The position numbers and the translations under genes are program-made. The notes below the pieces were generated by a model. The model worked only from the letters and a program-made list of their open reading frames with translations, had not been told where the DNA came from and did not search any database. A stretch of DNA of 64,000 bases from Blastocystis sp. Blastoise (lineage: Eukaryota > Protista > Bigyra: Opalinata): the NCBI GenBank assembly GCA_039096225.1, contig JBBPEB010000026.1:558001-622000 (forward strand), read 5' to 3'. Position 1 is the stretch's first letter. Every line of letters starts with the position of its first letter. Below are positions 19,329 through 38,704 of the stretch, in pieces.

Positions 19329-20086
19329 ATTCTTCCGTTCTTCGAACTGCAGAAGGGGGTATGCAAACCCCGCATAGAGTCTGCGCGACGCGCGCAGCCA
19401 TAAGCGGGGAAGTCATCCCCCCTTTTTGTTCTCGACGGAAGAATTAATAACATTTCTGAAGTAAAATAACCATGGGAGTGTAGGGTAGTGTGTGTGTGTA
19501 TTTATTTTTCCCATGTTTATTTATTTTTAATTTATTTGTGTTCCGATTCCAACGTGAAACGTATAGTGATCAAGGAGAAACTCATAGTAATCATAAAAGA
19601 AATAAAATACACAGTCCAACCCTCCCCTTTACAGGGAATATTCATGGAAAATGACTCCATCGTTGGTAAAGTGAGTAAAATAATCACGGGAATACAGAAA
19701 GAAATACGAAAAGAAGCACAGAATGTGCTAAATAAACACACACCCCGACCCTCCCTTTAATAGAGAAAAGATGAAATGGATGGTTCTATCTAAAAAGAAA
19801 TAATAAAAATAATCACGGGAATATATAAAAATAAAAATGTATGTATAGTGATCAATAAATAATATAAAAAGTCATGATAATCATAAAAAAAATTTATATA
19901 AAAAGAGTAAAGTGATCAAGGTATGTATTTATAGTGGGTGAAAGAAAAGCTGGTGGTGGTGTGGTCTTGTAAAAAGATGTACCCACCACCACGATTATAA
20001 CGAGAGACTTTTGGAAACATGAGCGACCGATATGGAAAAATATAAATTTTCTAGAACATTCTAGAACATTCTCGAAACTTCTAGAA
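19329..20086 (+). repeat. Left viral TIR (758 bp)
   Basis: Reverse complement of 43991-44748. Mirror ORFs in the ORF track are identical and coordinate sums are constant (64077). Confidence 0.96.
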
Positions 20087-20096
20087 CATTCGAGAA
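20049..20096. promoter_or_regulatory. Heat-shock-element-like array upstream of recombinase 1
   Basis: Ten alternating TTC/GAA pentamers at 5-bp spacing. Confidence 0.7.
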
Positions 20097-20184
20097 CATG
20101 AGAATCTTAGATATTTTATTTTGATTTTCTTATGTATTATTCTTTTGAAAATAGAAGTTTTAAAGATTCTACTTAAGAAAAACA

Positions 20185-21120
20185 ATGAAAAATACAAATT
20201 ATGACAAGTATCTTTTGGTTATACAAAATTCAAATTATTCTGATATTTGGAAAAAACGTTTAACCAATTATTTCAATTTATATATTTTCCCATTACCATT
20301 TAAAAAGTTCTCAGAATTCTTAAAGAATCCTTATTCATTCATGGATTATATGGTAAATGAACGTAAAATCAAAATTAGTCCAATGAAATCGTTATGTGAA
20401 TTGATATTATTTATTATACGTAATGTTTCTTCATTAAATAAAGAAGGTATTTTAAATAAATGGTGTGAATTTTATGTGATTATTAATGCAATGTATGAAA
20501 AATATCTGGATAATAAGAAACGTACTTTAATTCAAGATCTTATTAAAGATGGTATTACGACTCCATATTTACATGAATATCACGATAAATTAGAAAATTA
20601 TAATCCATTACGATTAATATTAGATTTTTACTCCTATCTTCCTCCTGCTCGTGCTGATTATGCTCAATTATTCATTCTAACTCCAGAAGATACTATTGAT
20701 CCAGCTATTCATAAGAATTATATTGTTTATGATAAAGAGAAACATACTGGTTCTATTCTATTAAATGATTATAAAACTGCTGGTAAATACTCTACAATTC
20801 AATTAGATGCACCAAAAGAATTGATTGAAGATCTAGAATTACTCTTAAAAAGAAATCCAAATCGTAAATTTATATTTGAATCTTCTGTACGAACTGGATT
20901 TACTACTAAAGCATTTGATTGGTTTGTGAATAAGCATTTAAAACAAATCCATCCAAAATTGACCATTAATGCATTAAGAAAATTATATGCTACAACTACA
21001 ACCAATACATTCCAAGATATAGAAAATTCTGCTTCTGCTTTATGTCATAATGATTATACACATATTAATTCTTATGTATCTTTAGAAAATAATAATTTAT
21101 TTAAAAAATTAATTGAATAA
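20185..21120 (+). CDS. Tyrosine recombinase 1
   Basis: Catalytic order PPARADY (R), YKT (K), NALR (HxxR-like), LCH (H), NSY (Y). Confidence 0.82.
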   Translation: MKNTNYDKYLLVIQNSNYSDIWKKRLTNYFNLYIFPLPFKKFSEFLKNPYSFMDYMVNERKIKISPMKSLCELILFIIRNVSSLNKEGILNKWCEFYVIINAMYEKYLDNKKRTLIQDLIKDGITTPYLHEYHDKLENYNPLRLILDFYSYLPPARADYAQLFILTPEDTIDPAIHKNYIVYDKEKHTGSILLNDYKTAGKYSTIQLDAPKELIEDLELLLKRNPNRKFIFESSVRTGFTTKAFDWFVNKHLKQIHPKLTINALRKLYATTTTNTFQDIENSASALCHNDYTHINSYVSLENNNLFKKLIE

Positions 21121-21193
21121 TTTTATGTTTTCATGCTTGTTTTGTTTTAAATTTGAATATAACTAAACAACTAGTAATAAAAGGATATAAAAA

Positions 21194-21568
21194 TTAATTA
21201 AAAGGTAAGAAAGATAGAGTATTATTATTATTTTGATATTGATTTTGTTGTTGATTACTTTTCATAGTAGGCATAAACATATTATTGGGTTGAATAAGAT
21301 TCTTATCATCTTGATATTGATTCTCATTCTTCATATATTGTTTATCCAATAGCATTTCAAGACGTTGATGAATCACAGGATCATCTATATAAAGTAGCAT
21401 ATTTCTACAATAACTTAGTTGTAAATCACTAAGATTTTTGTTGTTATTGTTATTTAAAAATTGTTCTAATAGATTCGCTATTTCATTCTTTTTAGATTTA
21501 ATTCCTTCTTCTTTTAGATTCTTCATCACACGACAAAAATAAGAATAACTAAGATATTTCTTGTTCAT
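21194..21568 (-). CDS. Viral hypothetical protein, 124 aa
   Basis: ATG-started ORF with an HSE array at 21664-21686 upstream. No family recognised. Confidence 0.55.
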   Translation of the reverse strand: MNKKYLSYSYFCRVMKNLKEEGIKSKKNEIANLLEQFLNNNNNKNLSDLQLSYCRNMLLYIDDPVIHQRLEMLLDKQYMKNENQYQDDKNLIQPNNMFMPTMKSNQQQNQYQNNNNTLSFLPFN

Positions 21569-21912
21569 TATTTAAATTAACCAATGATTAAACAAAACAA
21601 ATTAATTATATAAAATACTAATATAATAAATTAAAGATTCTACAAATAGAGCCAGTTCAAAATGAATGTTCTAGAATGTTCTAGAACGTTTCTTGGACAT
21701 ATAAAAGTAAAGTAAAATATATATAATAATAAGAACAATTTCAATAACTGACAGTATTTCATTTACATTCTCTAAAGTTTCTGCACTACGATCTAAGTAG
21801 TAATTGCCAAATCGTTTCTTTGTCATAATAGTATTAAATATTAAACAAAACAAATTAATTATACAAAATATTAATATAATAAATTAGAGATTCTAGAATA
21901 TTCTAGAAGGTT

Positions 21913-22500
21913 TTAACAAGGCATAAGATTTCCATTAGAAAGTAAATAAAGTAAAGAATAATAAAAGCAACCATTTGCATTACTTGTAGTTTTTTGGTGT
22001 TGAATAGGATTATATTGAATATTATGATTTTGAATAAATGATTTTGAAAAAGTAGGTTTATTTCCTAATGATGAATAGTGTTCTATATTTTTATTACCAT
22101 TATAAATAACAGCTTCAAAATGACCATTATAAGGATCACTAGGACTTTCATGGAAGATCATATTAAATTTAGTTTGATCTTGATCTATATTTTGTTCAAA
22201 ATCATCATAACTATTATAATAATTATAAGATTGAGAATTCGTTTTATTTAATTGTTTCATAACATTTTCAGCACGATCACAAGCAACAGAAGAGGTAGGT
22301 TTATTTAAATAAGCATAATTATATAATTGAGATATTAAAGAATTGGGTATATTACAATATTGAGATAGAGTTTGTTTGAAATTATTAGGGGATCTAGGAG
22401 TAACATGACGAGTTTTATCAGATATAATAGGATTATCACAATTCATTGAATTTTGAATAAGTTTTTCATCTTTACTCTTTACCAGATCCCCTCCCCTGAG
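21913..22500 (-). CDS. Adenain/Ulp1-like maturation cysteine protease, probably expressed by -1 frameshift from the upstream ORF
   Basis: GHFEAV (His), IEHYSSLG, QHQ (oxyanion Gln), NGCFYYSLLYL (Cys). The listed start at 22533 is TTG. Slippery heptamer at 22506-22500. Confidence 0.78.
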   Translation of the reverse strand, partial: LRGGDLVKSKDEKLIQNSMNCDNPIISDKTRHVTPRSPNNFKQTLSQYCNIPNSLISQLYNYAYLNKPTSSVACDRAENVMKQLNKTNSQSYNYYNSYDDFEQNIDQDQTKFNMIFHESPSDPYNGHFEAVIYNGNKNIEHYSSLGNKPTFSKSFIQNHNIQYNPIQHQKTTSNANGCFYYSLLYLLSNGNLMPC

Positions 22501-24230
22501 TTTTTTGATAACATATACTTCTTTTCTTTCCAAAACATTTGCTCACCTCTATCTAATATTTCATTATTATCCATCTTCTGTTTTATAATTTGTAATTGTT
22601 TTAAATCATTCTTAGCTACTTTACGTTTCCTTTGAGCTACTTGTGCAGGTATTACAAAATCTGTATAAGCTGTTACTAATGGAGGTAAATCACCACCTTT
22701 TTTCTTTTTAGCTTCTTTTCCTCTTCTCATTCGTTCTAAGAATTCTTCTTTACTTAATTTAACTCGACCACCATAACCTCTACGCTTAGATCTTCTTGCA
22801 GCTATTCGTTTATCCCTTTCATCTTCTTTCCATTTTCTATCGACTTTCTCCTTATCATTTTGAGGGAAACCATAAATCTTATAATAATAACTTTGTTCAT
22901 CACGAGACATTGGCTTATAAGGTTGAGGAGGTTGAGGTTGAGGAGGTTGAGGCTGTTGAAGAGGTTGTCTTTGAGGAGGTGGTATATTGTTTTGAGGTAT
23001 ATCAAATGTATCTACATTCAATTCAGGTTCAATTTGTTGTTGTGGTTGAACTGGTGATGCTGGAGGAGGTGGTTGACGAACAGGAAGATTTTTTCTAAGT
23101 TGTTGTTTCATACTGTGCAAAATTCTATCTGGCATTACTTGATCTAATATTTCTTCATCTCTTTCAATATCATCATAACCATCATGTATTGTTCCCATAA
23201 CTATACCATTACCTATTTGTTTTTTCATTTCATTTAATGCTTGTTGACGTTTTAATTTTTCCATTTCAAATTCAATATCATTTAATTCACTTGACTGTTG
23301 TGCCAAATGTGTATCATAATATGTTTTTCTACCTTTAGCAAAAGAATCCATACCTTTATCAACTACACCTAAAAGAGATGGTGCTAAAGTTGAAAATGAG
23401 TCCCAGAATCCACCACCTCTTTTAACTCTTAATATACCATCACCACTTTGAGCTGAATCTAAATCTATATATTTTGGTATAATTGAAGGTCTTAACATTC
23501 TTCTTAATTTTGGATTATTAATCATTTTCTTATTTTTAATTGCATTCATAATTGCTGAAGCAACAGATATAGGAATCTTTCCACCACGTTTAATTTTATG
23601 TTCATAGAATCTTTTGAATTCATCATCAAGATCATGATGACCATCACCAACATATTGAGCTAAAATAGCTAATGCATCACGAGCTTTTCTATTAGCTTTT
23701 TTATCTACAATAGCATCTCTTATATCTAATACATTTCGTTGATACATATCTTTTACTTTATTTTTAATTGCATCACCAATACCAGAACCTTGATTATTCT
23801 CTAATTTATTGATTTCTGATTTATTTGGAATAATTCCTCTACCAGATTTACGTCTTGGTTTACATGGATTTAATACTTTATATTGACGATCTTCACCATC
23901 TATTTTATCTTCTTCTGGACCAGCTGCTTTCATTACACCTTTACCTGCTGCTCTAGCACGAATTAAAGCACCATTTCCTTGTGGAACAGCATCTTTACCA
24001 AATGTTTTAGAACGATCTACATAATCATCTTCTTTACCATCATGTATTTCTTTACTTTCTAAAGTAGACACAGGCATAGATGAATTTGGACCTATTTCAT
24101 GAAATATTGGATTATATTGATCCATTTTATGTAATGGCTGTGTATTATATCGCCTATATTCTTTTCCTGTTGAAATTAAATTCATACCAAAAGTACCAGG
24201 ACTTGGCATTCCTAAGATACAACTTTGCAT
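22479..24230 (-). CDS. Putative virion core polyprotein (many GG/GxG sites, basic and proline-rich segments)
   Basis: 583 aa with KRGG twice, GYGG, KKGG, seven or more GxG motifs and an Arg/Lys-rich C-terminal region. Function inferred. Confidence 0.6.
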   Translation of the reverse strand: MQSCILGMPSPGTFGMNLISTGKEYRRYNTQPLHKMDQYNPIFHEIGPNSSMPVSTLESKEIHDGKEDDYVDRSKTFGKDAVPQGNGALIRARAAGKGVMKAAGPEEDKIDGEDRQYKVLNPCKPRRKSGRGIIPNKSEINKLENNQGSGIGDAIKNKVKDMYQRNVLDIRDAIVDKKANRKARDALAILAQYVGDGHHDLDDEFKRFYEHKIKRGGKIPISVASAIMNAIKNKKMINNPKLRRMLRPSIIPKYIDLDSAQSGDGILRVKRGGGFWDSFSTLAPSLLGVVDKGMDSFAKGRKTYYDTHLAQQSSELNDIEFEMEKLKRQQALNEMKKQIGNGIVMGTIHDGYDDIERDEEILDQVMPDRILHSMKQQLRKNLPVRQPPPPASPVQPQQQIEPELNVDTFDIPQNNIPPPQRQPLQQPQPPQPQPPQPYKPMSRDEQSYYYKIYGFPQNDKEKVDRKWKEDERDKRIAARRSKRRGYGGRVKLSKEEFLERMRRGKEAKKKKGGDLPPLVTAYTDFVIPAQVAQRKRKVAKNDLKQLQIIKQKMDNNEILDRGEQMFWKEKKYMLSKNSGEGIW

Positions 24231-24305
24231 TTTTTTATTTCAATTATAAAATTATTTATAAACAAAACAAATATATTAATAAAAAATAAATTTAACATTA
24301 AAAAT

Positions 24306-24899
24306 TTATAATTTAGTTAAATCAATAATAGTATCATTGCTGTTAGTATTCTTCGTAGATTTATCGAATACTTTAATAGAACGTGCATATAAACCAATAT
24401 AATACTTGTTATTATAACGATGAATACCATGTATTGTAAATAATACTTTACATAACGTATTTGGTGGAATATACTTTTCACGTATTTCTTCGTAAGTTAA
24501 CTTAGGATCTTTACCGATATTAATCTTCTTATCTCTTTTATCAGTAATATCAATAGTAACATTCTTCGATGCATTAATAGGTACTTTAATTGTAATCTTA
24601 TATTTACCATTATCCATACGTACAAAATTAACAATATCACCATCATGACATAATTCACATAATTTACGATAAAGTTCTTTATAAGCAGTTAAGAATACTT
24701 GATTATCATCTTCAATTGTTAATAAAGTCCATTTATCACGTGTAACAATATAACCAAATAAACATGGTGTAGCATCAGTAGAAATACATACACGATGATT
24801 ATTATTTAAAAGAACAGCATTTTCTTTGGTGTCATCCCATTGTAAATTAAAGTTAGAAGTATCAAGAATAGTAGGTTTTTTAAATTCAGTTGTAGACAT
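24306..24899 (-). CDS. Probable ssDNA-binding (OB-fold) protein
   Basis: TDATPCLFG near the N-terminus and the C-terminal beta-rich CKVLFTIHGIHRYNNKYYIGLYARSIKV resemble viral gp2.5-like SSBs. Recognised by eye. Confidence 0.5.
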   Translation of the reverse strand: MSTTEFKKPTILDTSNFNLQWDDTKENAVLLNNNHRVCISTDATPCLFGYIVTRDKWTLLTIEDDNQVFLTAYKELYRKLCELCHDGDIVNFVRMDNGKYKITIKVPINASKNVTIDITDKRDKKINIGKDPKLTYEEIREKYIPPNTLCKVLFTIHGIHRYNNKYYIGLYARSIKVFDKSTKNTNSNDTIIDLTKL

Positions 24900-24976
24900 T
24901 TTTAGTTAAGTATTTAGTAAAAATATAAGTATTTTAATACTAATATTTTACGATATTCTTTTCAAATGAATCAATT

Positions 24977-25024
24977 TTCGAGAAGGTTCTAGAAGGTTCT
25001 AGAATGTTCGAGAAGGTTCTAGAA
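24977..25024. promoter_or_regulatory. Heat-shock-element-like array upstream of SSB-like gene
   Basis: Ten alternating TTC/GAA pentamers. Confidence 0.7.
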
Positions 25025-25220
25025 AAAAAGAACACTTGAATAATCTAATGGAAACATTTTAACGGAATCGAACCATGATACTGTAGTTACATATTTCTTT
25101 AATAGATCCATTAGACCATTCAAGAATTCTATTTGAAACTATTCTATTTTCCATTTAAACTTTGTGAAATTAAATTAAAAAAAAAATAAACAAAACAAAA
25201 TAATTAATTAAATAAATAAA

Positions 25221-25748
25221 TTAATGATCAAATATTTCAGACATAGAAGGAATAGAATATTCGGATAATAATGAAACAATTTCTTTAGAATCATCATGAA
25301 TCTGTTTTAAATCTTGTTTCTGACTTTCAATCTTTGTTTTTAAATGATCAACAGTACAATAAATACCATTTAATATATTATCAGCTGTTTCAATAGTTTG
25401 AAATAAAGATTCGAATTGACTGGATATATTTGTTAACTCCTCATTTGTAAATAATAATGCTTGCTTATCAGGATTTGTATTTACTTGATCTTGAAATTGT
25501 ATTGGTTGATTGTTAACCGAATGATATCTATCTGGATTTTTAGATACGTAAACATCATTGATTGGATGAATTTCTTGAGGTGGATCTTCAAACATGATTT
25601 CGTCACGTGAATTAAAACAGAAATCATTATCATTGGGTAAAGCCATAGGATTTTCAGAAACACTATTTTCAAATGGATTCAACAAGGGGGATATCATGGC
25701 TTGACCGAAAGGGGATAAACTGGCAGAAAGACTATCAGGAATTTCCAT
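25221..25748 (-). CDS. Viral hypothetical protein with C-terminal coiled coil
   Basis: 175-aa ATG ORF, acidic, heptad-like C-terminus, followed by the TGTTTTGTT motif. Confidence 0.6.
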   Translation of the reverse strand: MEIPDSLSASLSPFGQAMISPLLNPFENSVSENPMALPNDNDFCFNSRDEIMFEDPPQEIHPINDVYVSKNPDRYHSVNNQPIQFQDQVNTNPDKQALLFTNEELTNISSQFESLFQTIETADNILNGIYCTVDHLKTKIESQKQDLKQIHDDSKEIVSLLSEYSIPSMSEIFDH

Positions 25749-26146
25749 GATTATTTAAACCTTCAAAAGTATTTTTATACAATATATTAAATATACTATT
25801 TTTAGTGTACAGTTCTTCATTTCAGTTGCTAACAAAAGCCTATTGCTTCCAGCTGGAAAATAAGCCAATAAAATAACTTATTTCGTATGACACATCGTCG
25901 TCATCGTCTAATTGTGTTTTACTAATTTTTTTATCCAATCAAATTACAGATGCCGACTATACTCGTCATTGAAACACAAATAAAAAATGCTAAGTCGACA
26001 AAATTAGCCAATCAAATGAACCTTCTAGAACATTCCATAGAGATTCTACACTGTCTCCTAGAATATTTAATATTCCATTTAAATGTATTATTTATTTCAT
26101 TTTGATAAATACAAATTTTCTCTCTGTAACGATATTCGCGATTATA

Positions 26147-26770
26147 ATGCAATTTAATCTTTCTGCTGATTCCCGTAAATGTCTTCAAACTGTTCGTATG
26201 GAACTTCTAAAGAATTCTAAGAAGGCTGTTGAAGTTCATAAGAATGTTCTTCGTGATATTGATTTACATCAGTCTCAATTGAATAGAGAAAAGAATCTAT
26301 TGGGTATTGCAAAATCTAAAGAACGTCTTGCTTCTTTCGAAGTCGAAAACTATAGATCAGCTTTAAAACGTATAAACGCGGTTATTAAAGGTCTTGAAGA
26401 TTATGAAGAATTCGCTGCTGATATTTATACTCAACAACTTAATGAAGAACAAGATATTCAAGATATTATCAATACTGAAGATCTTTTAGAAAGTGATAGA
26501 ACTACTATTTTATGTTCTGAAGATTCTAAAGAACATTCGAATTCTCAAGATGATGATTTTGATATTATGAAATTCCATATGGAAGATGGATTTCTTTATG
26601 ATGAAAAAGGTAAAGTTTATTCTTATGAAGTTGTTCATGCTAAGAGTATTAACAAGATTAAAAGAGATCCTTCAAAACAAATGTATTTCTGGGATGGTAT
26701 TTTATATGATAAAAATGGATGGCCTCATTCATGTACATATATTAATAGTCAAGAACCAATTGAAATTTAA
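26147..26770 (+). CDS. Viral hypothetical protein (coiled coil plus duplicated DGxLYDxxG motif)
   Basis: First ATG at 26147. EDGFLYDEKG and WDGILYDKNG repeats. Short HSE at 26018-26035. Confidence 0.6.
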   Translation: MQFNLSADSRKCLQTVRMELLKNSKKAVEVHKNVLRDIDLHQSQLNREKNLLGIAKSKERLASFEVENYRSALKRINAVIKGLEDYEEFAADIYTQQLNEEQDIQDIINTEDLLESDRTTILCSEDSKEHSNSQDDDFDIMKFHMEDGFLYDEKGKVYSYEVVHAKSINKIKRDPSKQMYFWDGILYDKNGWPHSCTYINSQEPIEI

Positions 26771-26880
26771 TTATTTTTCTTGTTTATTTTTCTAGTTTTA
26801 CTTATAAACTTGTAAAAAATCATTGAAAATTGTTTTGTTTATTGTATATACATTTAAAACACTAAAGTATAAAAAGGATG

Positions 26881-27018
26881 TTCTAGAAGGTTCTAGAAGG
26901 TTCTAGAATGTTCTCGAAGGTTCTAGAACATTTAAAAATATAAAGTAATATTTACTATTATAGAATGTTCTTGAATGTTCTAGAATGTTCTAGAAGCTTC
27001 TAAAACTGACTTCTAGAA
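26881..27018. promoter_or_regulatory. Double heat-shock-element-like array upstream of primase-helicase
   Basis: 26881-26928 has ten pentamers, 26963-27000 has eight, and there is a TTCTAGAA at 27011. Confidence 0.72.
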
Positions 27019-27086
27019 TCTTTAATATATTATTTGTTTTGAATTTTATGCCATATTTATTTTCATTATTTATAAGTCAAATAATC

Positions 27087-30000
27087 ATGGAAAATTCACA
27101 AATTCATTTTGTTTATACTTTTGGTTCCTTTAATCATGATAACTCAAAAGATAATCATAGTGAAATTATTATACCAAATCCATTACCATTTTATAAAAGT
27201 CTGTTTACTAATTATCAAAATCCAAAAGAATTATTACATTATATTGATTGTACTCCTTGTAATACATCAACTAATTATAGAAGATTATGGTTTGATTTAG
27301 ATTATCACCAAATATCAAATGATTTTTCTTTTCTAACAGATTCTTTTATTCATGAATTTATAGAAGAAATGTGTAATCATTGTATTCATTATTATAATCA
27401 AGAATTTATTTCGCTTCTGTATACAAAGAAAGAAGTGAATAAGAAGACAGTTCATAATGAAATACATTATTCATGGGGAATTCATATATATACAAATTGG
27501 TTTGTAAATGGTGATTATTTATTTTTCTTATATAATAGTATGATTCTGAATACCAAATTGGTTGATTTATGTAAAATGAATAATTTAGATATAAAAGAAT
27601 TCATTGATTATAATGTTATTGGTAAACCCAGAAAGAATAATGGTTGTATGTTTCTTGGTTGTAGTAAAGATAATTCTCCATCTACTTATAAATTATATGA
27701 AGAATATACCAATAAAACATGGAAGAAAATAGATGATGAAATCGATGAACATTATTATTTCAAAACATTATTGAATTATAAGAATGAAGATGATATTATA
27801 AGTGATATTATTAATCCTATTATTTTTTATAAATTAAAACAATATTCACGTTATAAACGTTATTATGCAAGATTAAATAATTGTTCACGTACTATATTAT
27901 GTTCTATACAAGATATTAAAGATATTCCTATGTTGATTTCTACAGATACTATATTGGATACTACAGCATCTAAAGAAGCTTTATTAGAACGATATTTATT
28001 ATTGATTGGTTCTATTGAAGATATGAATTATTTTGAATCCCATAATACTTGGTATAAATTATGTTGTGCAGCAAAACAGATTTGTAATACAACAAGAGGA
28101 TTAGAATTATTTAAAAATTATTCATTACGTTATGGTCATGATCGAAGTGATGATGTAATTGAATCTACATGGAATCATATACAAGTTGATCCTACTCATT
28201 TATCGAATAATTATATTTTGAAGATATTAATGGATAATAAATTATTTAATAAAGATGATGATAATGATTTCATATTTATGTCTATTTTAGAATGTATTCA
28301 ATCCTTTAATCTTGTAGATTCACAAACATTAGTTATGTTATTTCAATTATTAGAATTTAATGAAATTGTTTCTATTATATTAGATAAAGATAATTTTATC
28401 TTATATACATTTGATGAATATAATATCTTAAGACGTTGTAAGAATAATTATGATATTAATTTCTTTGAAACCAAAATAACTACATTTATGAAATCGATTG
28501 TAGAGAAATTCAAATTATCAAGATTATATTCCAAAGAGAATGAACAACATCAAAAAATAGTTGATAAAATAATGTCTGCTTCTGTTACTAATGAATATCA
28601 TTATAAAGAATGGTTGAATCGTTATTTGAAGACTTATGGTAAATCTTATAAAGAATATTTAGATACGTATATGGTTCATAAAGAACGTGTTATCTATACA
28701 CAACTTGGTTATTTATATCCAAAAGAATCAACAGAAGAAGATCCTAGACAATATTATATCCAACCATATCATAAAGAAGATATGGTGTTTGAAGATTTAT
28801 TAATTGATACTGAATTTAATGTAAGTTGGAATATTAATAATGAACAGAAAGATATTATCCAATTATTTGAACAACATATTGCAAGATATTGTGAATTCGA
28901 TAAGAAATATGAAAGTATTATGTTACGTATCTTAACCACTGCTTTCTATGTCAATACTCAGAAAACTGTTTCTTATATATTATATGGTAGTACAGGTAGT
29001 AATGGTAAAACAATAACAACTGATTTAATTTCTCGTATTGTAGGTAGTAATCAATGTATTATAGTAAATCCAGATAATTTAGAAGAAACATCTATAGCTC
29101 CTAAGATTGTAGATATGTCTAATAAGACTATGTATTATATGAATGAATTAATAGAAGAAGATGTTACTGGTAGAAAGAAAACATTTAATCCATTCTCTTC
29201 TAAAGTCTTTAAAGAAATAGCAGAAAAGAAAGAAGGTGCTAGTGCTCGTAAATTATTCAGTAATATATTTACAAAAGTTCATTTCACGGGTACTTTATTT
29301 ATGACAAGTAATATCCAACCTACTGCTGTGAATGCTGGTCCTATTGAAAGAAGAGTTTGTTTCTTACCATCATGTTGTCGTTATTTCCCTCCTGGTAATG
29401 CTAATTTATATGAAGATTATGTAGATCATAATTTACCGAAACGTAAACAGACAGTAGAAAAGAGATTGAAACCCAATCATTATGAAATGGATTATACTTT
29501 ATCCGATAAATTCTATCAGAATCGTTCAATTATCTTTAGTTATCTAGTAAGTAATTATTTCTATTCTAGTATGCAATTAGATATGCATGAATTAGATAAT
29601 GAATATCATATAAGTGAATGTAAGAAACGATTCTTTGATCGTAGTACAGAAGGATATGATTTGAAATCTTTTGTTGATAACCATATTACTATAGATCCTT
29701 ATTATTTGAATGTAGTTACTATTGAAGATATTTTTAATAGTTATAAGAAAGTGAATAATAATAATCAATTTACGATTAAGAAAGATTTAGATAAATTTAC
29801 AAATGCTTTATTTGGTTGTTTAAGTAGTAAAGATACATTTAATTCTATAGATATTGTGAATATTCATAGAAAACATACTTCAAATTTTTATAAGGGAGGG
29901 AATGCTATTGGTATTTGTGGTTTAATGATTGATAATACTTATAATGAATGTGTAGATACAGATTTATTCTGTTTATCCAATTGTTTATCTAAAAAAGAAG

Positions 30001-30089
30001 AAATTGTTTATAGTGAAGATCAATATCATAATACGTCATCAACAAAACGAATTTTAATAGATAATACTTTATATGCTATACCAAATTAA
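27087..30089 (+). CDS. AEP primase - PriCT-2 - superfamily 3 helicase (D5-like); alternative ATG at 27048
   Basis: RLWFDLD (AEP motif I), SWGIHIY (II), FIDYNV (III), TWYKLCCA...FKNYS (PriCT-2-like), GSTGSNGKT (Walker A), YYMNE (Walker B), MTSN (motif C), IERR. Confidence 0.88.
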   Translation: MENSQIHFVYTFGSFNHDNSKDNHSEIIIPNPLPFYKSLFTNYQNPKELLHYIDCTPCNTSTNYRRLWFDLDYHQISNDFSFLTDSFIHEFIEEMCNHCIHYYNQEFISLLYTKKEVNKKTVHNEIHYSWGIHIYTNWFVNGDYLFFLYNSMILNTKLVDLCKMNNLDIKEFIDYNVIGKPRKNNGCMFLGCSKDNSPSTYKLYEEYTNKTWKKIDDEIDEHYYFKTLLNYKNEDDIISDIINPIIFYKLKQYSRYKRYYARLNNCSRTILCSIQDIKDIPMLISTDTILDTTASKEALLERYLLLIGSIEDMNYFESHNTWYKLCCAAKQICNTTRGLELFKNYSLRYGHDRSDDVIESTWNHIQVDPTHLSNNYILKILMDNKLFNKDDDNDFIFMSILECIQSFNLVDSQTLVMLFQLLEFNEIVSIILDKDNFILYTFDEYNILRRCKNNYDINFFETKITTFMKSIVEKFKLSRLYSKENEQHQKIVDKIMSASVTNEYHYKEWLNRYLKTYGKSYKEYLDTYMVHKERVIYTQLGYLYPKESTEEDPRQYYIQPYHKEDMVFEDLLIDTEFNVSWNINNEQKDIIQLFEQHIARYCEFDKKYESIMLRILTTAFYVNTQKTVSYILYGSTGSNGKTITTDLISRIVGSNQCIIVNPDNLEETSIAPKIVDMSNKTMYYMNELIEEDVTGRKKTFNPFSSKVFKEIAEKKEGASARKLFSNIFTKVHFTGTLFMTSNIQPTAVNAGPIERRVCFLPSCCRYFPPGNANLYEDYVDHNLPKRKQTVEKRLKPNHYEMDYTLSDKFYQNRSIIFSYLVSNYFYSSMQLDMHELDNEYHISECKKRFFDRSTEGYDLKSFVDNHITIDPYYLNVVTIEDIFNSYKKVNNNNQFTIKKDLDKFTNALFGCLSSKDTFNSIDIVNIHRKHTSNFYKGGNAIGICGLMIDNTYNECVDTDLFCLSNCLSKKEEIVYSEDQYHNTSSTKRILIDNTLYAIPN

Positions 30090-30133
30090 ATATATATTTA
30101 TTTTTTACTATAAAAAGTTGTTTTGTTTTAAAA

Positions 30134-31930
30134 TTAATAAAATTTAAATTGTATTCCATGAAAATGTTTTTTAGGGACTTTGACTTTAAAGAATGCATTA
30201 CTTTTATGTTTTTTCAATAAACCATGACCACGATGAATAGGTTCTAAAGGAGGCATAGTAGAAAGACTACGTAATGCATAAGTATCTGAATTATTCATAA
30301 CTATAGGTGTAGAGTTTTCATCTTGAGTATTTTGTTGCATAAGAGATGCTTGAGTATTCGTTAATTCTGAATCTGTTGTATTATTATGTAAATGATCAGG
30401 TAATAATTGTTTATTACGTATAAAACGATTATAACGATCTCTAGAATTCTCTGGAACTTCTTCAGATTCTAATGAACATCCTACAGGTAATTCATTTTCT
30501 AAATCTGTTTTATCTGGATAATGATGCTTTAATAGATCTTTATAATATCTTAATGTAATCATTATGGTATCATTATCTGATGAATATTGTTCTAGACTAC
30601 TTAATATCGATTCTGATTTCATATTGAAATTCTCTTTACCAAATACATCTTCATAGTCTTCATCATATTGTTCTATACGATCATTAAATCGTTTACATAA
30701 AAATAATAATTTATTTAATTGATTAATTTCTCTTGTATAAGTAATATTATTCATATCAATATGAAATGTTCTTGTTTTATTATCTAAATCTTGCAATTTA
30801 GTTGAATGAGAAGATAAATAAGGAGATATATAATTTTCCATATGTGTTGATTGACTATGTAACATCTTCATAATCGAATTTTCAAAGAGTTCTACACCTT
30901 TAGATTCGTGTTCTGAATCATTATGTTGGAATTGTGCTTCTCTTGATAATCTATAATAATATTGAGCAAATAAATGTCTTATAATATCACAACCATTAAT
31001 TAAAGAATTATTCTGTTGTGTTTTATAAATCCAGCCTAAATGGGGTTTTATATATTCATCACCAAATTTCAAATCACGTACTTTACCACCATTTTCAGTA
31101 ACAAATAAATAATGTCTTGGAAATAAACGTAATGATCTAGCTAAGACATTCAAATATTCTTCTGATAAATATTGATAAGTAGGATATTCATTCTTACCAA
31201 TTTCAAATCGATTCTTTGTATCATTCACATGAATAGTCAAAGTATTTAAATCAATATAATTGGTTGTTCTTCTTAAGGATAAAGGAATTTGTTGACCACG
31301 AGTATAGATTACACAATCATTATAATCATTACGAGCACATAATGTATCATAAGTTAAAACTAATAAATAACTATTCACATAATATAAATCATTAGGATTC
31401 TCTAAATAATTCTTTTTGGTGATATTAATGATTTCTCCCCAATCAGCTTCACAATTAATAATTTTCTGAGTGATTTCATAATGTCTTGAATAAGTAGCAT
31501 CAATTTGTAAAGAACCCCATAAATGTTCCCATTTCTTTATATTTTGTGGAGTAAATGCTTTATAATTAATGATATCTTCATCATCTGTACAAATAGATAT
31601 ATTCTTCATTATATATGTAATCATTTGCATATAATTAGCTACAGTAGTATTGGATAATCCACCTTGTTGTCCAGGAGCTTCTGTTTGTGTATGTTGCATA
31701 ACATTTTGAAATTGAAATGGATCTGTTAACACTTCTACACAAAAGAATGGTTCTTCCATATCATCGATTTGAATTCGTTCTTCATTACGAAATTTCTTAC
31801 ATATTGTCTTGATCCATTTCTTCCAATTTATACTTGTTGATAATTGTATTTTCTTCCAATGTAATAATTGATCTATACAATTTGTAAAGAATTCCTCACA
31901 ATCTTTATCTGAATAACCTGTTGATTGCAT
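30134..31930 (-). CDS. Tyrosine recombinase 2 with long C-terminal extension
   Basis: LCARNDY (R), DTKN (K), DIIRH (R), MLHSQSTHMENY (H, Y). Same motif order as recombinase 1. Confidence 0.75.
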   Translation of the reverse strand: MQSTGYSDKDCEEFFTNCIDQLLHWKKIQLSTSINWKKWIKTICKKFRNEERIQIDDMEEPFFCVEVLTDPFQFQNVMQHTQTEAPGQQGGLSNTTVANYMQMITYIMKNISICTDDEDIINYKAFTPQNIKKWEHLWGSLQIDATYSRHYEITQKIINCEADWGEIINITKKNYLENPNDLYYVNSYLLVLTYDTLCARNDYNDCVIYTRGQQIPLSLRRTTNYIDLNTLTIHVNDTKNRFEIGKNEYPTYQYLSEEYLNVLARSLRLFPRHYLFVTENGGKVRDLKFGDEYIKPHLGWIYKTQQNNSLINGCDIIRHLFAQYYYRLSREAQFQHNDSEHESKGVELFENSIMKMLHSQSTHMENYISPYLSSHSTKLQDLDNKTRTFHIDMNNITYTREINQLNKLLFLCKRFNDRIEQYDEDYEDVFGKENFNMKSESILSSLEQYSSDNDTIMITLRYYKDLLKHHYPDKTDLENELPVGCSLESEEVPENSRDRYNRFIRNKQLLPDHLHNNTTDSELTNTQASLMQQNTQDENSTPIVMNNSDTYALRSLSTMPPLEPIHRGHGLLKKHKSNAFFKVKVPKKHFHGIQFKFY

Positions 31931-31997
31931 TATTAAAAATTAAATTATTTATAAACAAAACAAATTTATTATTAATATTTTATAACATTTCATAGAA

Positions 31998-32420
31998 TTA
32001 TAAATGAAGAGATTGAACAATAGAATCAACACTTATATTTAATTTCATTAATTGAACAGCTAATTCTTGTATTGATTCATTTTGATTAGAATCAATTTCT
32101 TCTAATTCATTCAAGACTTCTGATATATGTTTGACTTCTTCTTCTATAATCGTTTGTTGTATTTTCATTGTCTTATAATAGACTTTCTTTGTTTGTGGAT
32201 TACAACAATTACAATGAATATCTATATTTTTAACAATTAATTGAAAGAATTCAGTTGATTTCTCAAATAAACATTTTATAGCTTTTATAATAAATTCTAA
32301 TAAAGTATTTTTCTTTTCTATTTCTTCTTCGGATAATGTGGTTGTTGTTGAACTATCTGAACTTGTTGAACTTGTACTTGATAAAGAATGTAAGGATTCA
32401 GATACAGATTTAGGCTCCAT
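31998..32420 (-). CDS. Viral hypothetical protein, 140 aa
   Basis: Ser/Thr-rich N-terminus, HCNCC motif, coiled-coil-like C-terminus. Confidence 0.55.
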   Translation of the reverse strand: MEPKSVSESLHSLSSTSSTSSDSSTTTTLSEEEIEKKNTLLEFIIKAIKCLFEKSTEFFQLIVKNIDIHCNCCNPQTKKVYYKTMKIQQTIIEEEVKHISEVLNELEEIDSNQNESIQELAVQLMKLNISVDSIVQSLHL

Positions 32421-32489
32421 TTTTTAATAATTTTTAAATGAATAATATAACAAAACATTTTTTAATTTAAATGAAATGAATTAAAATAT

Positions 32490-34925
32490 TTATATATAAG
32501 AGATAGTTAATAAAACAACACAAGGATAATCACATGTTATAAAGAACATATTATCATGAGGTAATAACTTTAATAATTTACGATTACAATAATAAACATT
32601 CTTATTGATCTTATTCGATATACCTTCATATTTAATACCATTCGAATAGTAATAAGGTAGATTTGTAGTATCAATAACATGAATATTATTCTCATATTCA
32701 TTAGTAAAACATCTTAATGAAATAGGATATAAGTAATCAGTGGATTGACCATACACTGATATAATTTGTATATTCGTTAAGTATTGATATCCATAGACAT
32801 TGGGTTTCTTCAATTCATAAATTAAATTCTTACTTGTACTAAAATCACAATATACTTCATCATAAGCTTTGAAACGTATATCACTACCATTCGGTTCACA
32901 TATATTACAAATGATATTTCCTTTGAATAATTCATCAAATCTTAAATCGATATGATGATCAATTGTGATTGGAGAATTTATATTACTATAAGTAACATAT
33001 TTATCCGATAAAGGAAAACTAAATGTAGGATAATATGATCCATTTATATATCCAGTACATAATTTAGATGCATTTGCTTGGATTGTATCTGTATCATTTT
33101 GAATAATAATATCTTTTAAGATCTTATTTTGGATATTCAATGTAGGATATTCAGCATAGAATTGTGTGTCTGCTGTTTGACAATTCAAACATAATTTCTT
33201 AATAGTTTCACTTGGTTGAATCGTATCGACTGTATCTGAGAATTCTAAGAATCCTCTTAAAATACAATTATTATTAAAATTCACATATTGTTTATTTTTA
33301 TCAGTATATCGTATAATAATATCTTGTATTGTATTCAAATAAGGAGACACATTAATATTCATAATATCATGAAATTCATTATTGCCTTTATAATTATTCA
33401 CATTAAATGAATATAAAGAATTCTGACTATTATCTACTATATTCGATTGAGCTATTAACATTCCCTTTGGACGACTACTATCAATATTATGAATACCATA
33501 ATTAATAATTTCATCATGACCTAATTTATTATAACCTAGGATTTCACCTAATTCTTGAGCTTGAGAAAAATCTATATGATAACTATCAGTATAACACTTA
33601 TAATTACCATCTAAATCTAATGTATTCAAATCAACAGGTGTATCTGGTAATAATTGTTTACCATAAGATACATGCCAAGCAAAACATCCTTGTTCATCAT
33701 AAACTAAATCAGGACGTATATTATGTAGAGCACCACGATACTTAAATAAGGAGTGCTCTATATCTGTAGCTGTAAATGTGAATGACGTAGAATCAGTACC
33801 TTTACAAGATAAATATATTATATATCCATCCTTATTGTCCATAGTCTGAGTATCTTTGGATATACTTAAATAATCCGTATAAATTGTATTATTGATTGAA
33901 CTTTCTAATAATTCATAGAATTTGTTTTCTGTGTAATTTCCAGGAGGAACAGTGAATGTAGTTTCATGAACACCATCATAACCACTCAATTGTCGAACAA
34001 TCATTGTATTATATCCATCTTCCACAAAGACTGTTCTTTTAATTCTATTTAATGTAATTTCCTCTTGAAGTGAAGTATATGTCAATGTTTCTGAATCTTC
34101 AAATAAGCCAGTGAATAATTGTTTTTCTAAACTGAGTATATTATTACTTGACCATTGGAAATAAAATTTATGTTCATCAGCTAATACACATTTCATAATT
34201 CCATTAGAACCTTGTGTTGGAACAATATAACTTGAATGATCACTCACACCATCAGTAAAGAATTCATTCAATTCATAGATTCCTGTTGATGTAACAGGAA
34301 CATTATAAGAAGTTAATTGAGGTCGATATATGGTTATAGTATCATCATCATATCTCATCATTAAACGATTAAATTTATCACCCCATTTAGCTGATACACA
34401 ACATACAGCTATCCACCAAAACTCTATATCCGTATAAGTACCTTTTGGAAAGTAAAAACCACGTCTTTTATTATAAATTGTAATTTCACAATACCAATCA
34501 TCTCTATCAATGGTTATTGTAGGGGATTCATTAATTTTGACAGTAGGATCAATATCAGGAGAATCTTTTATTACTGGTCTATCACATACATCAAAATGAC
34601 ATAGTTCTAATAATTGTGGAATGGAATAATTTTTCTGATCTAAAGTGATTGTATATACGGAACTATTACCATTGACACGAGTATTTATATATTTGAATAT
34701 TTGTGTTTTTGTGAATGTATCAAATAGAGGCACACTTTCACTACCAATTAAATTAAGATCAATATAAGAAATGATATTTTTAGTGATATCAATAGAATTC
34801 GATAAATGTATATTGAATTGATTATCAATACAACGAACATCAATAGGGACTACATGTGTTTTAATACGAGTATCCTTCTCTTCTAATGAAGTCTGTTCTT
34901 CATAATTATCATCATCAAGTTCCAT
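32490..34925 (-). CDS. Large minor capsid (penton-like) protein with insertions
   Basis: Repeated penton-type motifs LDQKNYS, FPKGTYT and VPPGNYT, then LGEILGY, SNIV and IRYTDKNKQYVNFN. Confidence 0.6.
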   Translation of the reverse strand: MELDDDNYEEQTSLEEKDTRIKTHVVPIDVRCIDNQFNIHLSNSIDITKNIISYIDLNLIGSESVPLFDTFTKTQIFKYINTRVNGNSSVYTITLDQKNYSIPQLLELCHFDVCDRPVIKDSPDIDPTVKINESPTITIDRDDWYCEITIYNKRRGFYFPKGTYTDIEFWWIAVCCVSAKWGDKFNRLMMRYDDDTITIYRPQLTSYNVPVTSTGIYELNEFFTDGVSDHSSYIVPTQGSNGIMKCVLADEHKFYFQWSSNNILSLEKQLFTGLFEDSETLTYTSLQEEITLNRIKRTVFVEDGYNTMIVRQLSGYDGVHETTFTVPPGNYTENKFYELLESSINNTIYTDYLSISKDTQTMDNKDGYIIYLSCKGTDSTSFTFTATDIEHSLFKYRGALHNIRPDLVYDEQGCFAWHVSYGKQLLPDTPVDLNTLDLDGNYKCYTDSYHIDFSQAQELGEILGYNKLGHDEIINYGIHNIDSSRPKGMLIAQSNIVDNSQNSLYSFNVNNYKGNNEFHDIMNINVSPYLNTIQDIIIRYTDKNKQYVNFNNNCILRGFLEFSDTVDTIQPSETIKKLCLNCQTADTQFYAEYPTLNIQNKILKDIIIQNDTDTIQANASKLCTGYINGSYYPTFSFPLSDKYVTYSNINSPITIDHHIDLRFDELFKGNIICNICEPNGSDIRFKAYDEVYCDFSTSKNLIYELKKPNVYGYQYLTNIQIISVYGQSTDYLYPISLRCFTNEYENNIHVIDTTNLPYYYSNGIKYEGISNKINKNVYYCNRKLLKLLPHDNMFFITCDYPCVVLLTISYI

Positions 34926-34998
34926 ATTTTCTAATTTATTAAATTATAATTTATATTAATTTTATTTTATTTATTAATATTTTTTTTATTAAAAAAAA

Positions 34999-36471
34999 AT
35001 GAGAATCTTAAGAATTAAAGATAATATTCCTATTCAAAGCAATACTGATATTCTATCTAGTCCTTATATCTTTCAATATCATTGGACTAATGTGGATAAT
35101 ACTTATATCAATTTCAATCAATCCTATTTGGATCTTACTGTCAAAGCAACTGTAACAGATAAAGCTGGACCAGTTTCTGTTTATTTAGATGAAACAGGTA
35201 CTTCTGCTAGTTTCACCTATGATCAATTATGTCAATATTTCTTGGATCAATTAGTTCAAAAAGCTAATATTTATTCTATTATTGATACTACTGATATTGA
35301 AATGGTTTATACATTACCTGATGGATCTGATCGTGCTTTAAAATATGAAGAAAATTGTACACATGCTTCACGTGGTCGTAAAATGATATTATTAAAAGAT
35401 ATTAGTAAAAATGATTTAGAAAAATCTATGTATGGTGAAGATTTATCTGCAGATACTTATGAATTGAATTCTATTCGTTATATACGTGCACATCCAAATG
35501 AATCTATTCATATTGCTATTCCTTTATATCTTATTAGTGGTTTAGGTGTTGATGGAGATTCTTTAATATTAACTAAACATTTCAATATGTTATTTAGAAC
35601 TAGTACTATTGAATCATTAATTGATAATAAAATGAGTATTTATTTCAAGAATGGTACTGCTACCAAAACTACCGAATGGTTACATTTAGATGATGAAAAA
35701 TGGTTTAGTACATTCAAGATTGAATCAGCTACTATGAATTTAATGACTTATAAAGATATTCAGTTCCAATCGAATGAATTATATAAAACTATACCTACAT
35801 GTATTCAAGTCGATTATCAAAATACAAGAATAACTAGTGATCATTTCAATATCAATAGAGCTTTACCATTTATACCTGAATATATATTATACTGGTTTAC
35901 AAATGGGTATAGTTCAACAACTATTAGTAATGTAGCTAGTCCATCTGTATGGCCTAAATATCAAAGTTGTTTGATTGGTGATGTTCAAATGTTCCCTCAA
36001 ACTGAATTCCCTACTCAAATGTATTATCATAATCTTACTACTAAAGGTCATGTCTTCAATAATGAAGAAACTGCTAGTTTATCTTGTCCTAATAAAAATC
36101 TATATTGTTTATGGGCTGATAATTCAAATCCTGAAACTATTCTTAAATATGATGAATGGATTAAACATCCTATTTATATTATTCCAACTAAAGCATTAAT
36201 GAATATCCAATCAGATAGTGGTATAGAAATGAATTTTGATTGTAATCTAGATGTCCATGATATTGAATATGGTCATGCTGATTCATCTACTGTTCCTGAT
36301 GGATATACATGTACATATAATGAAACTACTAAAATATGGACACCTGATACTGGTGCTTCTTATAGTGTAGCTTCTCATGCTGGTATTTATAAACATATTA
36401 ATACTGAACTAGATGAGAAGCATCCTTATACATTACATATGATTGCTGTACGTAGTGTACGTGATATTTAA
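34999..36471 (+). CDS. Major capsid protein paralogue 1 (double jelly-roll type)
   Basis: YINFNQSYLDLTVK, IPLYLISG and PEYILYWF match the Polinton/PLV MCP pattern. Collinear paralogue of 36648-37871. Confidence 0.7.
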   Translation: MRILRIKDNIPIQSNTDILSSPYIFQYHWTNVDNTYINFNQSYLDLTVKATVTDKAGPVSVYLDETGTSASFTYDQLCQYFLDQLVQKANIYSIIDTTDIEMVYTLPDGSDRALKYEENCTHASRGRKMILLKDISKNDLEKSMYGEDLSADTYELNSIRYIRAHPNESIHIAIPLYLISGLGVDGDSLILTKHFNMLFRTSTIESLIDNKMSIYFKNGTATKTTEWLHLDDEKWFSTFKIESATMNLMTYKDIQFQSNELYKTIPTCIQVDYQNTRITSDHFNINRALPFIPEYILYWFTNGYSSTTISNVASPSVWPKYQSCLIGDVQMFPQTEFPTQMYYHNLTTKGHVFNNEETASLSCPNKNLYCLWADNSNPETILKYDEWIKHPIYIIPTKALMNIQSDSGIEMNFDCNLDVHDIEYGHADSSTVPDGYTCTYNETTKIWTPDTGASYSVASHAGIYKHINTELDEKHPYTLHMIAVRSVRDI

Positions 36472-36647
36472 ATTTAATATTTCTTACTTACTATTCTTAA
36501 CGTTAACTTGTTTAATTAATTCTATTCTATTCTATAATAAAATCATTTGTTTTGTTATAAAAATTAAAATTAATTAATAATTATAAAATATTATTATTAT
36601 TTTATTTTTATTTTGTTAAAAAAAATACATAAACAATAATTACTAAC

Positions 36648-37871
36648 ATGGAAGGATTCCCAAGACAATTCTTACCTTCAAAGGCAAATCAAACTATTAA
36701 ACCTGTACAAATTCCTATTCTAGTTTCTACAAGTCAAGATTTATTAAATCAACCTTATCCATTTGAATTCTTATATAATTCAGTGGATAGCCCTTATATT
36801 GATTTCAGTAATTCATTCTTAGAACTGAATTTCAATATTACTGGTACTAGAGACAAAAATTCAACATCTTCAGTTGTACAACATTCTAATATCTATAGTA
36901 TTATTGATAAAATTACTACAGATCTTACGTTTGTATCTCCTACGGGTCAAGATATTCTTATTAATTATTCTGAATCTTCTATTGAATCCAGTAAAGCAAG
37001 AAAATTTGTTACTATTAAAGAATTAAGTAAAGATGAAATTGATAAATCTATGTATAGTATGACAGAATGCTTATATAATAACACGTTGAGTAGTATTGCT
37101 GGAATGGAAATGAAAGAAAAAGCTCAAGTTATTATTCCTTTATCTCTTATTACTGGTCTTGGTACATTTGATTGTGCTATTAAAGTAAAATCTTTGAAGA
37201 TGCAATTCGTTACAAATTATTTAAAGAATCTATTTACCGGTACCACTGTAATCACTGCATTGAAATTTGATCGTGTTTATATTCATCTTCAACAAATTTA
37301 TGATATTAATTTTGGTAATGATCCACGTGCTTTGATTAAATGTATTCCTAATAATTGTCAGATATCTGCATTCACTACACCTGTTTATTCACAAGCATCA
37401 GTATCAGGTACACCAACTCCACAACAATTCTTATCCAATAGAAGTGTTGTTTTCGTACCTGATTATTGTATGTTATACTTCACAAATCAAGAGAAGAGCA
37501 TGATTCCTATTAAAACTGAATTATTAAAATCATGTCAATTCCAAATTGGTGGTCAAAATATCTTACCAAAGACGGATTTCCCTACTACGTATAAAACAAC
37601 GAATCCATCACAAATTATTCCTAATGCTATGCTTTATAATACTTGGAGATGTAATAGTCATCCTCAATCTCCTTTAAACGGTGAAAAGTGGTATGAACAA
37701 CCTATTTATATATTCCCTATTTCAAGTGTTGTTGATGTCAATACGCGTAGTGGTTGTGAAGTTAATATCTCATTATTAACTGAATATACTGGTGGAACTG
37801 TTACTGGTCCTTATACTTTATATGCTCATTTTATATTTGTTAAATTTGTTAGAGATGGTGCTACCAATTAA
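36648..37871 (+). CDS. Major capsid protein paralogue 2 (double jelly-roll type)
   Basis: YIDFSNSFLELNFNI, NIYSIID, IPLSLITG, PDYCMLYF, PIYIFP. Beta-rich, 407 aa, next to penton and ATPase. Confidence 0.72.
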   Translation: MEGFPRQFLPSKANQTIKPVQIPILVSTSQDLLNQPYPFEFLYNSVDSPYIDFSNSFLELNFNITGTRDKNSTSSVVQHSNIYSIIDKITTDLTFVSPTGQDILINYSESSIESSKARKFVTIKELSKDEIDKSMYSMTECLYNNTLSSIAGMEMKEKAQVIIPLSLITGLGTFDCAIKVKSLKMQFVTNYLKNLFTGTTVITALKFDRVYIHLQQIYDINFGNDPRALIKCIPNNCQISAFTTPVYSQASVSGTPTPQQFLSNRSVVFVPDYCMLYFTNQEKSMIPIKTELLKSCQFQIGGQNILPKTDFPTTYKTTNPSQIIPNAMLYNTWRCNSHPQSPLNGEKWYEQPIYIFPISSVVDVNTRSGCEVNISLLTEYTGGTVTGPYTLYAHFIFVKFVRDGATN

Positions 37872-37969
37872 TTTATTTATTTGATATTTTTATTATTTGT
37901 ATCAACTTTATATTATTCTAAAAAAATATTGTTTTGTTTATAATTTCATAATTAATTCATTTAATAAAA

Positions 37970-38635: not shown

Positions 38636-38704
38636 TAAAATCATTTATTTATCTTTAACTTATCATTAATTATTTTTTGTTTTGTTGATTAAAATCATAT
38701 AAAA

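Follow-up and report, generated by a model that had tools for sequence, protein, structure and literature searches.

A putative programmed −1 ribosomal frameshift joining a likely core polyprotein to a predicted protease in an endogenous Polinton-like virus of Blastocystis

Introduction

How does a Polinton-like virus (PLV) dose its maturation protease, and how does the enzyme get into the particle? Almost no PLVs have been grown. The genome of Blastocystis sp. Blastoise holds a locus that raises this question directly and that, if the reading proposed here is true, would answer both parts of it. It lies in a 64,000-nucleotide (nt) stretch of DNA (assembly GCA_039096225.1, contig JBBPEB010000026.1, positions 558,001 to 622,000), called the window throughout, to which all coordinates refer. 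Within an endogenous PLV in this window, an open reading frame (ORF) of 583 amino acids (aa) on the minus strand (22479..24230) overlaps a second ORF that encodes a predicted cysteine protease in the −1 frame. By analogy with retroviral gag-pro genes we think it probable, at roughly 85%, that a programmed −1 ribosomal frameshift (−1 PRF) yields a minority core-protease fusion, which would then be packaged and cut after the sequence LRGG.

The junction between the two frames

The 583-aa ORF, taken as frame 0, ends on the minus strand with TCA AAA AAC TCA GGG GAG GGG ATC TGG TAA. Six codons ahead of the stop it contains the in-frame slippery heptamer A AAA AAC (22500..22506), followed by the 7-nt spacer TCAGGGG (22493..22499) and by AGGGGATCTGG (22482..22492), the 5' arm of a predicted stimulatory stem. 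The stop codon TAA (22479..22481) stands immediately 3' of this arm. The 3' arm, CTAGATCCCCT (22387..22397), can form 11 pairs with it, one of them G-U. The heptamer, spacer and 11-bp stem had been placed at these positions by the original prediction, and re-reading the sequence found all of its coordinates correct.

The −1 frame, open over 22542-21913, contains no ATG until 22446 and reads LRGGDLVKSKDE directly after the heptamer. A −1 slip would thus lead into the protease frame (21913..22500, 195 aa after the slip) with LRGG (22489..22500) and then DL, as originally read, and the product would comprise 577 + 195 = 772 aa. Three expectations for −1 PRF can be compared with the sequence. The heptamer falls within the overlap of both ORFs (22542-22479); a structure is predicted 7 nt 3' of it, inside the usual 5-9-nt range; and the coding part of the −1 frame is entered before its first ATG, as the similarity to relatives starts at 22476.

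Is such a layout exceptional within this virus? The 120 nt 3' of the heptamer are predicted to fold at −31.1 kcal/mol (z −3.39), a value that 0 of 200 shuffles equalled, and within sequence contexts of 120-600 nt the 11 stem pairs keep pairing probabilities of 0.55-1.0. Taken as controls, the element's 18 ORFs (7050 codons) contain 24 in-frame canonical heptamers, and the one at the junction is their sole A AAA AAC. It is also the only one that opens a −1 frame of at least 50 aa (195 aa), and it precedes both the strongest stem (−18.5 against −9.4 for the next best) and the best 120-nt fold. An equally strong stem 5-9 nt downstream occurs at 4 of 6978 codon positions, the junction included. 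The junction stem is predicted to extend through two more helices; no convincing pseudoknot partner was found for it (best −6.7 kcal/mol), and an Rfam search returned five matches, all far below gathering scores. Two other strong stems are predicted, one at about 23439-23380 (minus strand), which overlaps the KRGGGFW motif of the core gene, and one at about 43226 (plus strand), with −19.6 and −20.6 kcal/mol, respectively, and no canonical heptamer ahead of either.

Codon use at the junction is also unusual. None of the 6924 seven-codon windows in the element ORFs is as rare as the −1 codons that follow the slip and encode LRGG and its surroundings, CTC AGG GGA GGG GAT CTG GTA, and the tail of frame 0 ranks within the three rarest of 6942 six-codon windows. 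When codons were redrawn synonymously, none of 2000 redraws matched the stem strength, and 17 of 2000 did so with the 5' arm held fixed. Given these rare codons and the loss of the stem on synonymous redraw, the junction region is under constraint beyond that of the protein sequence.

Sequences beyond the junction also hint at a shared message. The motif TGTTTTGTT lies at most 130 nt past the stop codon in 17 of the 18 element ORFs (one mismatch allowed; 15 exact) and never occurs exactly within the coding strand of any of them. The core ORF is the only one that it does not trail; instead it follows the stop codon of the protease as TTGTTTTGTTT (21843..21853, minus strand), where it is likely the 3'-end signal of a joint core-protease transcript. 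Its absence after the core ORF together with its presence after the protease suggests that both are carried by one transcript. TGTTTTGTT is a longer look-alike of TGTTGTT, a Blastocystis downstream element linked to 3'-end formation and, according to the available text of the source, not enriched in tortoise isolates (PMC10690189); by this likeness a role in 3'-end formation may be assumed here. TTGTTTTGTTT was also considered as a promoter and rejected, as it tracks the ends of genes rather than their starts. Host ORFs are trailed by TGTTTTGTT as well (14002, 18678, 45838, 55496).

Fused and split relatives

Among named proteins, those most closely related to the 583-aa protein are hypothetical ones from Blastocystis sp. 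Blastoise. Do any relatives encode core and protease as one chain? P0026, a 617-aa protein from ENA, does: in tblastn it matches both window frames, the core frame with E values of 9e-35 and 1e-10 and the protease frame with 4e-65, and the match to the protease frame begins at 22476, which is 30 nt ahead of the first ATG. Its cluster has 30 members; 11 of the 15 listed show the fused junction and 4 of 15 are shorter, protease-only calls. A search of 1.84 billion representatives gave nine matches, namely three in-frame fusions (P0065, P0066 and P0067), four core-only and two protease-only proteins. An in-frame core-protease fusion is encoded in the protein clusters of four relatives. The position of the first Met of the window's protease is occupied by Met in fused P0026 and P0065, by Leu in P0066 and by Gly in P0067; the last two are single representatives with unconfirmed support, and P0066 reads on into the next gene. 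Its C-terminal extension is related to a 124-aa ORF found downstream of the protease in the window (21194-21568, minus strand; E 2e-08), such that P0066 unites core, protease and a relative of this ORF in a single reading frame.

In the lineage of the window itself, the break between the frames is a common property. All 21 listed core proteins end with KKYMLSKNSGEGIW, the same 14 residues, and one of them is identical to that of the window. Just ahead of this shared end, two allele groups of the lineage diverge, with about 11 differences in 31 residues. As the break is found in 21 of 21 listed core proteins, it is not private to the window copy; recombination could be an alternative source of the end shared between the allele groups.

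Other split lineages end differently. The core ORFs of P0058 (7/7 members), P0068 and P0069 close with KGF, AGF and GGF, each followed by the stop, and x-G-F-stop ends are compatible with the slippery heptamer G GGU UUU, as deduced from the protein. Tripeptides compatible with one of the four most shift-prone heptamers, as given in the available text of PMC5009743, make up only 46 of 2909 in these proteins. The stand-alone proteases P0001, P0002 and P0008 have their called start three residues before S-R-D-E. Only two out-of-frame overlaps fit both proteins: TTT TGA, from which the −1 frame takes TTG, or a stop-start overlap one codon later. The former would give G-F-L-K-E-SRDE, with the same spacing as G-D-L-V-K-SKDE in the window and G-A-T-H-Y-SKDE in P0026, while P0065 and P0066 have three residues between Gly and the motif. 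The longest contig has a length of 23715 for one core member and likewise for one protease member, which suggests that the two may be adjacent. Relatives were compared as proteins.

In a tree of the core proteins, the fused P0026 falls together with the split P0068, P0058 and P0069 (96/95), while the window lineage lies elsewhere, as do the fused P0066 and P0067; the tree is rooted at the midpoint, and three of its rows fill less than 40% of the columns. The protease tree offers no resolution (0/6 inner branches starred). Fused and split states are interleaved in the core tree, and change may have run in either direction. Switch-point scoring against P0026 gave no sharp position for the slip; scores stay flat or rise over the overlap. 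For the family as a whole, these protein comparisons tip the balance towards a protist PLV family in which the protease is the C-terminal part of the core polyprotein and may be reached by three interchanged codings: in frame, by a −1 slip on A AAA AAC, or by a −1 slip on G GGU UUU.

A predicted CE-clan protease and its likely precursor

What kind of proteins does this junction connect? The downstream ORF had been taken for a viral protease, and structure prediction supports its assignment as a CE-clan (adenain/Ulp1-like) cysteine protease. Its model, with a confidence (pLDDT) of 78.5, matches a MELD virus protease at E 1.1e-4. Among CE-clan structures the best match is VIA (Z 8.9, root-mean-square deviation 3.1, 121 aligned); pS273R (Z 7.2) and the adenovirus protease (Z 6.5) match as well. 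A Foldseek search of the model against the PDB gave no hit at E ≤0.001, its top rows nonetheless being CE-clan proteins. The Atlas feature search scored 0.91-0.93 to clusters bearing Peptidase C5, a weak indication in view of its low recognition value, and sequence searches of Pfam, PHROGs and the PDB returned no match for either the core protein or the protease.

The predicted catalytic residues follow the order His-Gln-Cys on the minus strand (His 22122-22120, Gln 21996-21994, Cys 21969-21967), and H141, Q183 and C192 are invariant in 8/8 aligned rows. The acidic position of the CE-clan triad is expected to hold Asp or Glu. Here the aligned place is Ser in 7/8 rows and Asp in the distant relative P0070 only, so the enzyme possibly lacks the acidic residue that is usual in the triad. 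In the window the Ser is protease residue 157 (22074-22072, minus strand).

The 583-aa protein is a basic, low-complexity chain (K+R 18%) with five GG sites, and a KRGG/RRGG motif is kept in 8/8 aligned core rows. Based on this composition and the repeated GG motifs, it is likely a virion core polyprotein. Two further ORFs of the element, 42213-43703 and 39796-40833, are also basic and rich in GG motifs; the N-terminus of the former is common to the core protein family (tblastn E 1e-4), and it is likely a paralogue.

Where might the precursor be cut? The LRGG at the junction had been interpreted as an adenain site of the type (M/L/I)xGG. This interpretation fits only the window junction: M, L or I at P4 is present in LRGG, in none of the core ORF's five GG sites, and in neither fused GG junction (PSGG, QWGG). 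Conserved across relatives is a Gly or Gly-Gly three to four residues ahead of an S(K/R)(D/N)E motif. Since (M/I/L)XGG-X fits the window junction alone, the cleavage rule of the family is more likely a plain xGG or xG than the adenain consensus.

A model for dosing and packaging the protease

Taken together, the gag-pro-like −1 frameshift that the original prediction placed between the 583-aa protein and the protease is supported by the fused relatives, the break shared by the listed core proteins, the x-G-F ends and the one-transcript layout. In the proposed mechanism, a single mRNA would encode the likely core polyprotein together with the protease predicted behind it. Most ribosomes would terminate at the TAA at 22481, while a minority would slip by −1 on A AAA AAC ahead of the predicted stem and make the 772-aa fusion with the transframe peptide ...MLSK[N/K]LRGGDLVK. 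The core part would then carry the fusion into the particle, where it might free its own 191-aa protease by a cut after LRGG. The slip, the low protease-to-core ratio, the packaging and the self-cleavage are proposed because of the analogy with gag-pro and the specificity of CE-clan enzymes.

Other explanations for the junction

Several observations weigh against a frameshift, and some of them also favour a particular alternative. Concerning the stem, its loop is long (84 nt), and the peptide encoded by the 3' arm, PRSP, is also found in the in-frame fused P0066, so that part of the stem is possibly a by-product of the protein sequence. The x-G-F ends are kin by descent (P0058-P0069 60%, P0068 34-38%) and also resemble internal GGF sites. 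Pattern scans of viral contigs, metagenome contigs and prokaryote genomes gave no confirmed DNA of relatives. In addition, the 177-aa ORF starting at the ATG contains the complete predicted catalytic domain, the first 11 residues being of low confidence, and its Met is kept in the split protease clusters P0001 and P0002 as well as in the window. Internal initiation would therefore also give a plausible enzyme.

This last point leads to the alternative that survives best, although we consider it very improbable: the protease could be made separately, from a 3'-coterminal transcript that begins within the core gene, by reinitiation or from a non-AUG start (CTG 22485) at or near the ATG at 22446, which would render heptamer and stem incidental. 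Besides the complete fold and the retained Met, it is favoured by the x-G-F lineages, whose codons would be compatible with a stop-start overlap. However, the ATG has a T at −3, where 16/18 ORFs have a purine, and the GC content upstream of it is the highest of all starts (33% against 0-22% for the other 17 ORFs), unlike other viral starts. The similarity to relatives begins upstream of the ATG, and the Met is also present in two of the fusions and lost in the other two. Moreover, the heptamer, the stem and the rare codons would be left without explanation.

A slightly smaller chance is given to an assembly error, in which a run of seven A was under-called as six and the true gene is continuous, as in P0026. 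In-frame fusions are indeed common among the relatives, the site is a homopolymer, and according to the available text of PMC10120064 false frameshifts arise easily in viral regions that are present in several copies. The coding strands of the 18 viral ORFs contain 51 A5, 22 A6 and 1 A7 runs; with A7 or longer nearly absent from open ORFs, the control for an under-called run is not clean. Read coverage speaks for neither side: a look-up of sequencing runs listed one, X1, with a share of 0.07 and none with RNA, and the contigs of X1 leave 22441-22833, junction included, uncovered, while a low-depth contig of the same run covers 22271-22423 and contains no alternative letter within the 3' arm. 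Against such an error speak the break common to all 21 listed proteins and the presence of split forms in Logan and ENA assemblies too. At the other 23 A6+/T6+ runs, the −1 frame that opens is never longer than 21 aa, and runs of A7 or longer do exist in the window (42). Furthermore, an error would explain neither the rare codons nor a stem of a strength found 5-9 nt behind so few codon positions.

Less credible again is a short intron that joins the frames. Among 23 frame-joining GT..AG pairs (25-200 nt) one has a YAG acceptor and preserves GG|DL; it runs from GT 22536 to CAG 22496 (41 nt) and would give ...EQMGGDLVK. The host is rich in introns, but the donor of this best candidate, GTTTTG, is poor, and the other 22 pairs lack a YAG. 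The 18 viral ORFs read unbroken, such a splice is annotated in 0/20 named relatives, and the stem would again be left unexplained.

Just as doubtful are transcriptional slippage on the A6 run, by which some mRNAs would gain an extra A, and a break that is dead and spread from a founder as the family was amplified: the A6 is there and the element may be inactive, but six A are short for polymerase slippage, 22 other A runs of at least six occur in open ORFs, the protease frame is intact with its His, Gln and Cys invariant, and the break is common to two diverged allele groups.

The host element

The locus belongs to a Polinton-like virus (Preplasmiviricota) at 19329..44748. With 25.4 kb and inverted-repeat arms of about 760 nt at its ends, the element lies inside the 15-40 kb size range of PLVs. 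Two tandem capsid candidates (34999-36471 and 36648-37871) are double-jelly-roll paralogues with 29% identity (E 2e-42). For one of them the Atlas model reaches a template-modelling (TM) score of 0.65-0.70 to capsid clusters of the Sputnik type and the nucleocytoplasmic large DNA virus (NCLDV) type, which is under the naming bar of the service; a single-sequence model of a capsid candidate was uninformative (pLDDT 33). A packaging ATPase (38705-39742) matches PHROG 2666 at E 1.2e-10, with weak FtsK and DEAD matches, and a primase-helicase is also encoded. A likely tyrosine recombinase completes the set, its Pfam match being weak (E 0.08). By eye, both 20185-21120 and 30134-31930 resemble tyrosine recombinases, the weak match being to the first alone. 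Neither PolB nor an rve integrase was detected by Pfam among the 18 element ORFs, which places the element outside the strict definition of Polintons/Mavericks or adintoviruses.

The virus sits in a DDE_1 (pogo-like) transposase gene, whose N-terminal part remains on the left (18881-19328) and whose DDE domain remains on the right (44749-45733). The outer repeats of the surrounding transposon are found at 16988-17144 and 45846-46002, and a second DDE_1 element (17235-18801) is nested within the same transposon. No target-site duplication of at least 3 nt is evident. A 10-nt near-palindromic repeat with a TTCTAGAA core forms clusters at 20035-20096, 24953-25024, 26857-27005 and 43957-44028; they lie between genes or in the inward-facing ends of the inverted repeats and are possibly protein-binding sites.

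Comparison with known systems

The closest parallel is the retroviral gag-pro(-pol) arrangement of the mouse mammary tumour virus (MMTV) and human T-lymphotropic virus (HTLV) type. Both there and in the window a structural precursor is followed by an X XXY YYZ heptamer, a 5-9-nt spacer, an RNA structure (predicted in the window) and a protease in the −1 frame. The gag-pro site of MMTV is the same A AAA AAC. This heptamer is counted among the most shift-prone ones in the available text of PMC5009743. In contrast to retroviruses, the window holds a DNA virus with a double-jelly-roll capsid and a CE-clan cysteine protease instead of a retropepsin, and its predicted stem is bulged and long-looped, with no pseudoknot found. 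While placing retroviral pol in frame with gag is described as lethal in the same text (PMC5009743), the relatives of the window tolerate a complete in-frame fusion.

Within the same broad virus group, a preprint on adintoviruses puts forward, as a hypothesis from KnotInFrame in two sentences of its available text, that Penton ends are slippery and that Hexon and Adenain are fused ('Hexain') (PMC11071296). As far as this text goes, the proposal shares with the window the protease clan and a −1 slip close to where a virion gene ends. The partner there is the major capsid protein, whereas here it is a core-like precursor for which fused and split relatives are known. The original prediction had known of no such arrangement in a PLV. 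For a core-protease frameshift or an in-frame core-protease fusion this agrees with our literature search, in which no PLV example came up, its scope not extending to subscription journals, genome maps or parts of supplements; the adintovirus idea shows that a related proposal does exist.

Maturation proteases such as adenain of adenoviruses, pS273R of African swine fever virus, I7L of poxviruses and those of virophages and PLVs have the CE-clan fold also predicted for the window protease. They are encoded as separate genes. The window protease differs from these adenain-type enzymes in being the tail of a core precursor and, as it appears from the alignment, in a Ser at the acidic triad place. 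A Gly-Gly-type cleavage and a low copy number in the virion, as far as the available sources describe them, are properties that the window protease is predicted to resemble. For adenain, 7-50 copies per virion and the consensus (M/I/L)XGG-X are given in the available text of PMC7998265.

Tailed phages offer another precedent: in gpG/gpGT, a low-level −1 slip sets the ratio of two morphogenesis products of a double-stranded DNA virus, as proposed for the window. A haloarchaeal tailed virus uses A_AAA_AAC, again according to the available text of PMC5009743. These systems differ from the window in their prokaryotic hosts and in concerning tail chaperones, with no protease involved. Gossevirus-type PLVs and the Blastocystis MELD virus are, like the window element, endogenous viruses of protists. 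Gosseviruses combine a cysteine protease with a Sputnik-like capsid (available text of PMC10120064), and the Atlas model suggests a Sputnik-like capsid for the window element too. The described Blastocystis MELD virus carries PolB and an rve integrase (available text of PMC8502044), both undetected in the window element. For neither group is a frameshift reported in the available parts of these sources (PMC10120064, PMC8502044).

Implications

If true, the frameshift would bring the way in which retroviral gag-pro genes set protein ratios to a double-jelly-roll DNA virus of eukaryotes. If the reading of three interchanged codings is true as well, a slippery site would have been gained or replaced more than once. 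The relatives, some fused and some split, form a natural series that offers a rare view of the gain or loss of a frameshift signal. There is also a warning for annotation: 'frameshifts' in PLVs are usually dismissed as decay or error, yet a PLV protease gene that is reported as truncated or absent may be the continuation of an upstream gene in the −1 frame.

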